Origin: Candidatus Jordarchaeales archaeon
Lineage (GTDB): Archaea; Asgardarchaeota; Jordiarchaeia; Jordiarchaeales; Freyrarchaeaceae
Direction of reading: 5' to 3'
Length of the DNA stretch: 32,000 nt
Assembly: GCA_038889235.1 (NCBI GenBank)
Contig: JAWAHN010000001.1
Span: 210,001-242,000 of the forward strand
The translations under genes were made by a program, and so were the position numbers. The notes below the pieces were generated by a model, which ran no database searches, had not been told where the DNA came from, and saw nothing but the letters and a program-made list of their open reading frames with translations. Positions 29,763 through 32,000 of the stretch are shown piece after piece (the first letter of the stretch is position 1; each line of letters begins with the position of its first letter).

Positions 29763-30150
29763 CTTTCACGCTTATGATTATGGTGACGCCCCCACATATG
29801 TAAGCACTGGAAAGGTACTCTTTAAAGTGCGCGTTAACAACGTCCTTCCAAGGCTAAGGCGTCACAAGACACCACCTTGACACACATTGACCCAAATATG
29901 CTTATAGCTCTTGGCCTTACACCCTTAACCATCAACACGTTAGGGGAGAGGCGGCTGCGAGCTCAGCAGACTTCCAAAGTGCCCGCTGATGCTTTCTCTT
30001 CTTTTATGGAGAGGGGCATTTCCGTTGTCAGAAACATCGGCAACCGCGAATGATGGGGGCTCCCAAAATGGTTGCGGATAACGGATTCCACGCCTCTCTG
30101 CAGCATTTTTAAAATAGATTAAATAGTCATAAATAATTTGTAATATCTTC

Positions 30151-30760
30151 TTGATGGAGAAGCTTTACACTCTCAAAGAGGCTAAGAGACTTCTGGGCGT
30201 TACAACTAGGACTATTCAAAGGTGGGATAAGGAGGGCAAGATTAGGTGTGTTAGGACTGTTGGAGGACGTAGGAGGATTCCTGAAAGTGAAATAAAACGA
30301 ATTCTTGGTTTAAGAGAGAAAAGAATCATTGTAGGGTATGTAAGGGTTTCATCCTCAACCCAAAAAGATGATTTAGAGAGGCAAAGGCAGTTGATACTAA
30401 CTTATGCCAAGGAAAAGGGTTACGGTGAAGTTCAGGTTCTTTCAGATGTGGGCTCTGGGCTTAATGAGAATAGGAAGAATTTTCTAAGACTTTTAGACAT
30501 GGTCTTTGAGAGAAGGATCTCAAAGGTTATAGTTGCTTATGAGGATAGGCTTACAAGATTTGGGATTGAAACTCTGAGGAGAGTGTTCTCAGTTTTGGGA
30601 CGGAGATAGAGGTAATAAACCATGGAGAGAAGACACCCAAGAAGAGCTTATTGAAGACTTAATCACTATAGTTTCTCACTTTGCTGGAAAGCTCTACGGT
30701 ATGAGAAGCCACAAGTACAAGGAGGTTATTGAAGGTGTCAAGCAGCTTATATCAGGTTAG
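30151..30760 (+). pseudogene. tnpA: IS607 TnpA serine recombinase with two single-base frameshifts
   Basis: [35 protein letters not shown] catalytic Ser, [17 protein letters not shown]. Restoring one base at T-run 30593-30596 and one at C-run 30636-30638 yields ...[55 protein letters not shown] (203 aa). Confidence 0.85.
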
Positions 30761-31982
30761 AGCGTATAACATTAAGCATGGCTATGAAGTTTCAGAGTTT
30801 CTGGAAGCGTATAGGCTAATGCTTCAGAGGGCGATAGACGAAATATGGGCTAGGATTAGGTGGGTTGAGAAATTCAATAGATTTGGGAGGCGTAGGATCA
30901 TCCCAATCATACCTAAAGATGGAGCGTTCAAGAACCATTACTTAAGGGATTTGTTGATGAAGGATTGGGCCTACTCAAAGCACTACGTCGATTCAGCTAT
31001 TAAGCAGGCATACAGCATCCTGAAGTCTTGGAGGAGAAATTATGTTAAAGGCGAGAAGAGTAGGCAGAAGCCAACCGTCAAGAAAAGGTTTGTTAGAATC
31101 AAGGAGACGTTGTATAGCTTTAGGGATGGAAAGATAAGAGTGAGTCTTAAACCTTATAGGGAGTACCTAGAGTTCGACATCTCAAAAGCGTGGTTTTTAA
31201 AGAAGGTAAGGGGAGAGTTAGGCGAGCTCATACTTGGAGAGAAGTATCTAACGGTCATGTTTAGGTTCAAAGAAAAGAAGGGAGACGCGAAAGGCAGGAT
31301 CGCATGGGACTGCAATGAGAGAAGCTTGGATGGATTTAATCCGAAGCTAGGCTGGGTTAGGGTTGATTTAACGGAGCTCTTCCACATTCACAGGGTCTAT
31401 GAATTGAAGAGGAGGCGGCTGCAGGAGAAAGCGTCTAAGAAGCCCTCGCTCAGAAGGGTTCTAGACAAATATTCGAGGAGGGAGAGAAACAGGGCTAGAG
31501 ACTTCATCCATAAGCTGACAACTTTCCTCTCCAGAGAATACGAAGGATACATACATGGCTTCGAAGACTTGGAGAAGAAGCGGATGTTTAACAGCTCAAA
31601 GAGACATAACAGGGAGGTTGCGAAGAGCAACTGGAAGACCATACAGTCCTTTATGGCATATAAGTCGAAGACAATGCCCATCAACCCGAAGAATACAAGC
31701 AAAAGATGCTCCAGATGTGGGATGATTAATGCCCCGAAAGGAGCGAGATACGAATGCAAGGGATGCGGGTTGAGGATCGATAGACAGCTAAACGCTGCCA
31801 TAAACCTATACCTTCAGATGAAGGGGCTTTCTCCAAGCAAAAGGCTCTTTAATGAGCTGATGAGGGCTTGGAGCGGGTTCACCCTGACAGGGGGAGAGGC
31901 CAATGAGGGCTCCTATGAACTCGTGAGGAGCCCTAGGCTAGTGAACCCCAAGAGCTACGCAAGTCTATCTAAGACTACGTAG
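30729..31982 (+). CDS. tnpB: TnpB RNA-guided endonuclease family protein with non-canonical RuvC-III (DRQLNA)
   Basis: RuvC-I IAWDCN, RuvC-II GFEDL, zinc finger TSKRCSRCG...CKGCG, then [14 protein letters not shown] 30735 fits the GGAGG RBS spacing better than TTG 30729. Confidence 0.9.
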
Positions 31983-32000
31983 CTCAGAACCCTAAAACTC
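31820..32000 (+). ncRNA. Putative TnpB omegaRNA (right-end RNA) scaffold overlapping the tnpB 3' end
   Basis: Stems: GGGTTCAC 31875-31882 / GTGAACCC 31941-31948; AGGGCTCCT 31906-31914 / AGGAGCCCT 31926-31934; GAGCTACG 31952-31959 / CGTAGCTC 31978-31985. The position matches known omegaRNAs. Boundaries are approximate. Confidence 0.6.

Follow-up and report, generated by a model that had tools for sequence, protein, structure and literature searches.

Does a TnpB protein still cut DNA when the third acidic residue of its RuvC catalytic site has been replaced by glutamine, or has it acquired another function? The question is raised by a tnpB gene near the right edge of the window, as we call the whole stretch of 32,000 nucleotides of Candidatus Jordarchaeales DNA that was analysed (contig JAWAHN010000001.1, positions 210,001 to 242,000). 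A sequence-only reading of this DNA had noticed that the canonical DRDxNA motif reads DRQLNA, and had proposed either a nuclease-dead regulator or a rearranged active site. Of these two options the rearranged site still stands, while a regulator of the TldR type does not agree with the data. Coordinates of the relevant features are given in Table 1.

Table 1. Features of the tnpB locus, numbered from the first nucleotide of the window
Feature	Coordinates	Strand	Evidence
Decayed NifB/NifX-like host gene (FeMo-cofactor-binding family), 3' part	29790..30094	-	Synteny with G006; weak PF02579 match
GCC target-derived motif, predicted TAM core, preceded by C at 30091	30092..30094	+	Precedes left ends; present in the G006 empty site
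IS607-type left end	30095..30153	+	Homology starts here, upstream flanks differ
tnpA, IS607 serine recombinase (MerR-type HTH + resolvase)	30154..30760	+	NF033518, 152.9 bits (cut-off 110); three-frame read
tnpB ORF, TnpB/Cas12f-like fold	30729..31982	+	PF07282 above cut-off
RuvC-I D194 (GAC 31308-31310) and N196	31308..31316	+	Both in 120/120 close homologues
D201, candidate replacement acid, RuvC-I Asp +7, strand beta-2	31329..31331	+	Covariation with position 353
RuvC-II E279 (GAA), canonical position	31563..31565	+	120/120 close homologues; aligns with the ISDra2 E278 region
C4 zinc finger (C327, C330, C343, C346)	31707..31766	+	Each in 120/120 close homologues
Q353 (CAG), RuvC-III catalytic position, on helix 352-364	31785..31787	+	Codon, alignment, model
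Predicted omegaRNA scaffold within the tail of tnpB, up to the right end (...CAGAACCC)	31850..31992	+	Folding, covariation
Start of the flank-derived guide, running beyond the window end	31993..32000	+	Right-flank comparison, empty-site alignments

When the individual codons were read, the RuvC-I Asp, the RuvC-II Glu, the CAG codon and an unbroken CxxC...CxxC zinc finger were found where the sequence-only reading had placed them. The frame is open over 417 codons, as also stated there, but the likelier start is GTG 30735, where the start of a 97%-identical homologue (P0002) falls. Profile alignment places DRQLNA on the DRDENA motif of ISDra2 TnpB (8BF8), so that Q353 occupies the position of D361; the catalytic residues of ISDra2 TnpB are D191/E278/D361 (PMC13639567). 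Hence, the canonical D-E-D triad is absent, and D-E-Q is found instead. The RuvC-I motif is DxN rather than the usual DxG. A structure model built from a diverse alignment (pLDDT 90.5) replaced an earlier one from a narrow alignment (pLDDT 57), and its best structural matches are Cas12f, ISDra2 TnpB, ISFba1 TnpB and Fanzor2, with Z between 14 and 18. The WED-REC-RuvC-zinc finger fold and a length of about 400 amino acids identify the protein as TnpB/Cas12f-like. The dN/dS ratio in the RuvC and zinc finger region, estimated from few unsaturated pairs, is about 0.10, the same level as in the remaining protein.

Gln at the RuvC-III position is a clade-wide trait and not a one-off. Among 120 close homologues the residue is Q in 112, H in 8 and D in none, an outcome that bears out the earlier suggestion of similar DRQ motifs in other archaeal elements. 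Both Gln codons, CAG and CAA, are used in homologues; together with the residue counts, this indicates that Q353 is neither a sequencing error nor a product of chance. Q-type proteins reach down to about 26% identity across hot-spring archaea, and 90 rows of a 220-protein tree make up a single supported Q-type branch, with more Q and H lineages among its sisters. The hosts of the homologues include Asgard archaea, Bathy- and Korarchaea, Methanomethylicia, Nitrososphaerota, Thermoprotei and Thermoplasmatales. The closest protein (97% identity) is from Ca. Jordarchaeales, and locus L039 of a same-genus assembly (G076) shares its left flank with a Ca. Jordarchaeia record (L011), so that a Jordarchaeia Asgard archaeon is the most likely host. 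A 50%-identical member (P0285) is found in Staphylothermus marinus, a cultured hyperthermophile. One protein nested in the Q clade (P0134) combines D201 with DRD and so has four acids, possibly through reversion.

The tnpB gene sits in an IS607-type transposon, whose bounds (30095-31992) were drawn from homology among copies. The sequence-only reading had described the tnpB features correctly, but it had missed the IS607 tnpA upstream, the ends of the element and the covariation of D201. Assignment to IS607 is based on an upstream serine recombinase with a MerR-type HTH, a dinucleotide shared by the junctions, lack of target duplication and a clean empty site. The triplet GCC stands just before the left end at all 26 loci retrieved with protein queries and at each of the 32 distinct left ends of G076, an assembly of the same genus, 21 of the latter having been fetched with a pattern that contained CC but not G. 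One base outside GCC, at -4, G is never found. As GCC is also present in the empty site of a relative (G006), it belongs to the target DNA. Both junctions share CC, which also closes the right end and is likely the crossover dinucleotide. Against reading GCC as a TnpB motif, the preference could stem from TnpA alone.

In this copy tnpA has lost one base in each of two homopolymer runs, near 30593 and near 30635; the gene is broken and the copy therefore non-autonomous. Many copies retain tnpB with tnpA deleted. A copy that is 98.7% identical over the element (L068) carries an intact tnpA of 202 amino acids; compared with it, the left end of our copy shows a 5-bp deletion and a 4-bp insertion. 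The tnpA deletions may be real decay, as suggested by the left-end indels and by a broken host gene next to an intact Mrp gene, or else read errors.

The transposon family is mobile. The L068 copy, from other Jordarchaeales assemblies, lies between different flanks; in G006 the syntenic site, which adjoins a Mrp ATPase gene, is empty. An exact empty-site scan of metagenomes had given no match, and the G006 site was found by a looser search. In the empty-site alignment the junction of this copy is ambiguous by 1 nt. At a second locus (L014) the rejoined flanks align without gaps to an intact gene, and at a third (L015) the GCC junction is retained. The element of the window interrupts the NifB/NifX-like gene, leaving the first 11 codons of that gene on the far side of the right end. 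In G076, 45 left ends were counted in a 73%-complete assembly of 1.7 Mb and 200 contigs.

Additional observations concern the surroundings of these elements. Some G076 elements lie head to head and some inside other tnpB genes, and their number is unusually high for TnpB elements. The NifB/NifX-like gene, located upstream of the Mrp/NBP35 ATPase gene, is frameshifted here and also in G006 (L101:1402-1893), where it carries no inserted element. A lone left-end-like sequence follows GCC in the genome of the window, G000, at C1:546753-546779 (minus strand; L073). Lastly, a repeat of about 260 bp with 73-77% identity occurs at four places of genome G000: C1:242278-242533, just past the window, C1:487386-487646, C1:152896-153073 and C3:177677-177927.

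The last 140 nt or so of the element have a folding z-score of -3.97, and 19 of 49 consensus pairs, terminal hairpin included, show double-sided changes among 24 copies, a count that carries no control for relatedness. Conservation drops sharply after 31992. The final ~50 codons of tnpB (31829-31982) combine low dS with low model confidence, as expected if this tail doubles as the RNA scaffold. A structured right-end RNA with a sharp boundary between scaffold and guide, here predicted from sequence, is a further feature by which TnpB/Cas12f-like systems are recognized; the scaffold matched no Rfam family. Downstream of that boundary, 45 distinct right flanks are mutually unrelated, and pairs of guides share about 4/16 bases. 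Outside this locus, the genome contains no GCC-flanked stretch that matches the guide of this copy over more than 9 nt.

If the RuvC-III carboxylate has been lost, another acid might fill its place. The sequence-only reading had suggested the Asp two positions upstream (D351), a proposal that fails because this residue is N in 43/120 homologues and S or Y in 2. E197 was discarded as well, being variable in the Q clade (L, M, K, V, F). On alignment grounds D201 is a better candidate. Asp is found at this position in 91/91 proteins with Q at RuvC-III, in 26/33 with H and in 5/96 with D; in other words, in 117/124 proteins that have lost the RuvC-III Asp and in 5/96 that keep it. Exceptions exist both ways, as D201 is missing in seven H-type proteins and present in five D-type ones. 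Within residues 70-366, the only positions invariant among the 91 Q-type proteins, a set defined by Q353 itself, are D194, N196, D201, E279, P115 and the zinc cysteines. Of the MI-APC partners of position 353, 201 ranks first at two of three weightings; 199 and 203, which alternate with it along strand beta-2, are also among the highest-ranked. In the model, strands 189-195 and 199-204 form a hairpin that bears D194 and D201. By the RuvC/Cas9 fold, the +7 position would be the cross-strand neighbour of the catalytic Asp and face the RuvC-III helix, in agreement with the modelled hairpin. In canonical DxG TnpBs, this position is mostly Ala.

The strength of the covariation depends on how kinship is treated. 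On the tree, D201 and the RuvC-III residue undergo five changes on shared branches, a number equalled by only 3/233 control traits, two of which are the neighbouring positions 199 and 202. An independent-pairs test of the same association gave about three pairs with it, one against and two without difference (p 0.4-0.6, not significant). A Fisher p of 3e-30 was set aside as inflated by kinship.

Natural comparisons are available in the same genome. A sister non-autonomous element (L071, G000:C1:432170-433560, minus strand) has the same left end and the same CGCC flank, and its TnpB combines a canonical D-E-D triad with Thr at +7, thus providing a natural control. Another IS607-type element (G000:C2:425500-428990, minus strand) has a frameshifted tnpB with D-E-H, Asp at +7 and a left flank of the TGGG type. 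The presence of GCC in one case and a TGGG-type flank in the other indicates that the target motif differs between sister clades.

From these data we infer both an activity and a geometry: the protein is probably still a nuclease that is guided by RNA, has a rearranged RuvC site and cuts donor DNA at sites the element has left. By analogy with characterized IS607 elements, TnpA would excise the element, so that GCC becomes joined to the right flank; the complex of TnpB and omegaRNA would recognize and cut the vacated site; and homologous recombination would then restore the element at the cut. In the active site, D194, E279 and D201 would bind two metals, with D201 reaching from beta-2 to where the RuvC-III carboxylate used to be, and the side chain of Q353 (or His) would either serve as a neutral ligand or position D201. 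A dead site is unlikely as D194 and E279 remain invariant among the 91 Q-type proteins, and the intact TAM-guide logic and mobility also count in favour of an active nuclease. If the protein cuts, there is a good chance that D201 is essential. The alternative is that an amide alone suffices, as might be argued by analogy with the Fanzor GtFz1, which cuts with D-E-N. We are more hesitant about the fuller proposal that the third carboxylate has moved from the RuvC-III helix to beta-2 (D194/D201/E279, with Gln or His as helper), that the switch has occurred several times in both directions, and that the product is a thermostable, compact nuclease or natural nickase with a GCC motif: this is a tentative idea with somewhat less than even prospects.

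Experiments on related enzymes bear on an active D-E-Q site in different ways. Besides GtFz1, the D606N mutant of SpuFz1 is more active than its parent, whereas D-to-N changes gave no improvement in TnpB or Cas12 (PMC11423790). FnCas12a D1255A retains some trans activity (PMC5939048). In canonical TnpB, a change of any DED residue abolishes activity (PMC10705468). The rearranged TnpB RII-r5 is active, and it is the sole active rearranged ortholog named in the accessible part of the report by Nety et al. (PMC10278001), its rearrangement being of the RuvC-II type.

Among other explanations, the one that fares best is a catalytic site that is attenuated or redirected, so that the protein nicks a single strand or does no more than process omegaRNA out of its own mRNA. 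Nicking or R-loop binding would be enough to favour retention of the element; the scaffold lies within the ORF and needs to be cut out; and the invariant acids would be explained equally well. Furthermore, self-processing linked to RuvC, and orthologs in which RNA processing is seen but dsDNA activity is not, are described in the portion of PMC10278001 available. We nevertheless regard this explanation as unlikely: a single RuvC site cuts both strands in TnpB, strict nicking would need extra changes that are not seen, and copy number and mobility equal those of full-nuclease elements.

Less likely still is a nuclease-dead RNA-guided binder that serves the transposon, for example by labelling the emptied donor site so that TnpA re-integrates there, or by damping transposition, with the acids kept for the fold or for metal-mediated binding of nucleic acid. 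The canonical catalytic Asp is indeed fixed as Gln clade-wide, and both linkage to tnpA and guide logic are retained. However, known dead derivatives lose two or three triad residues, while here D194 and E279 do not vary and a further acid has been gained; in addition, many copies delete tnpA yet keep tnpB. The extreme version, in which a dead TnpB guides the serine recombinase back to vacated sites, seems improbable.

The proposal that the protein has been domesticated as a TldR-like, RNA-guided repressor acting on host genes is largely refuted, and we give it very little credence. Like TldRs, the protein has a TnpB fold with an altered triad, and this copy's tnpA is broken. Nevertheless, TldRs have at least two triad changes, lack tnpA and element ends, have fixed host-gene neighbours and carry conserved guides that target promoters (PMC10705468). 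None of these features holds here: a single triad residue is changed, tnpA and both ends are present, the element is mobile with no fixed gene neighbour, and the guides are unrelated between copies and, for this copy, lack a GCC-flanked match of more than 9 nt elsewhere in the genome.

One-off decay or a sequencing error in a dying element, which the decay of this copy's tnpA, left end and host gene and four private changes at conserved sites might suggest, can be dismissed since Q is clade-wide with two codons and the private changes are close to the homologue median of three; Q353 aside, this single copy may be drifting.

The activity of RuvC-III-altered TnpBs is a prediction of a 2023 census, and the clade described here makes that prediction directly testable. 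A GCC motif, an RNA boundary, D201 as candidate acid, the four-acid protein P0134, sister elements of the same genome with D-E-D and D-E-H, and the S. marinus homologue P0285 are all in hand. If the protein is active, RuvC chemistry would be extended, an editor that withstands heat and uses a C-rich TAM would become available, and it would follow that loss of the third Asp is no ground for annotating a TnpB as nuclease-dead.

That census, by Altae-Tran et al., reports six large RuvC-III-altered TnpB branches for which activity is predicted, of which Ser-6, RIIIr-6 and MazE are nearly exclusive to archaea, according to the part of the article available (PMC10691335). Our clade shares with them a conserved replacement of the RuvC-III Asp, an archaeal distribution and predicted activity, and is probably one of those branches; within the same portion of text, the archaeal range, serine recombinase and RuvC-III change agree with what is said of Ser-6 and RIIIr-6. 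RIIIr-4, described there as having His and no C4 zinc finger, was ruled out by the Gln and the intact finger of our protein, which is in addition accompanied by a serine recombinase. The RHH/MazE-TnpBs, which are immobile and lie downstream of an RHH/AbrB gene, were ruled out as well, since it is tnpA that lies upstream here and the transposon moves. The main text of the census, as far as available, names neither Gln nor a compensating beta-2 Asp.

Comparison with GtFz1 (PMC11423790) reveals an amide at the third catalytic position of a TnpB-superfamily RuvC site in both proteins, a condition compatible with cleavage in GtFz1. In contrast, GtFz1 is eukaryotic and larger, has Asn instead of Gln, and has no known extra Asp.

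There is close resemblance to IS607 TnpA(S)-TnpB elements such as CboIStron (PMC10690162) and those encoding the ISFba1/RAGATH-18 TnpBs. In the IS607 element of C. botulinum, insertion by TnpA takes place at TGGG with GG as its core, and the donor site, once rejoined, is cut by TnpB with that same motif serving as TAM (PMC10690162). As in these elements, a serine recombinase gene is followed by an overlapping tnpB, the ends are asymmetric, the junctions share a dinucleotide, a short target motif lies upstream and the guide is taken from the right flank. Differences are also evident: the motif is GCC here, and TGGG or AGGAG in CboIStron/ISFba1-type elements; the scaffold is not in Rfam; the RuvC-I motif is DxN and the triad D-E-Q with D201; and the protein scores 47 bits against the IS607_TnpB model, whose cut-off is 350. 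The literature search retrieved no experimental study of this clade or of any D-E-Q TnpB, nor mention of a beta-2 Asp. Archaeal RuvC-III-altered branches have already been catalogued computationally, and the proposed D201 geometry would be new relative to the literature found.
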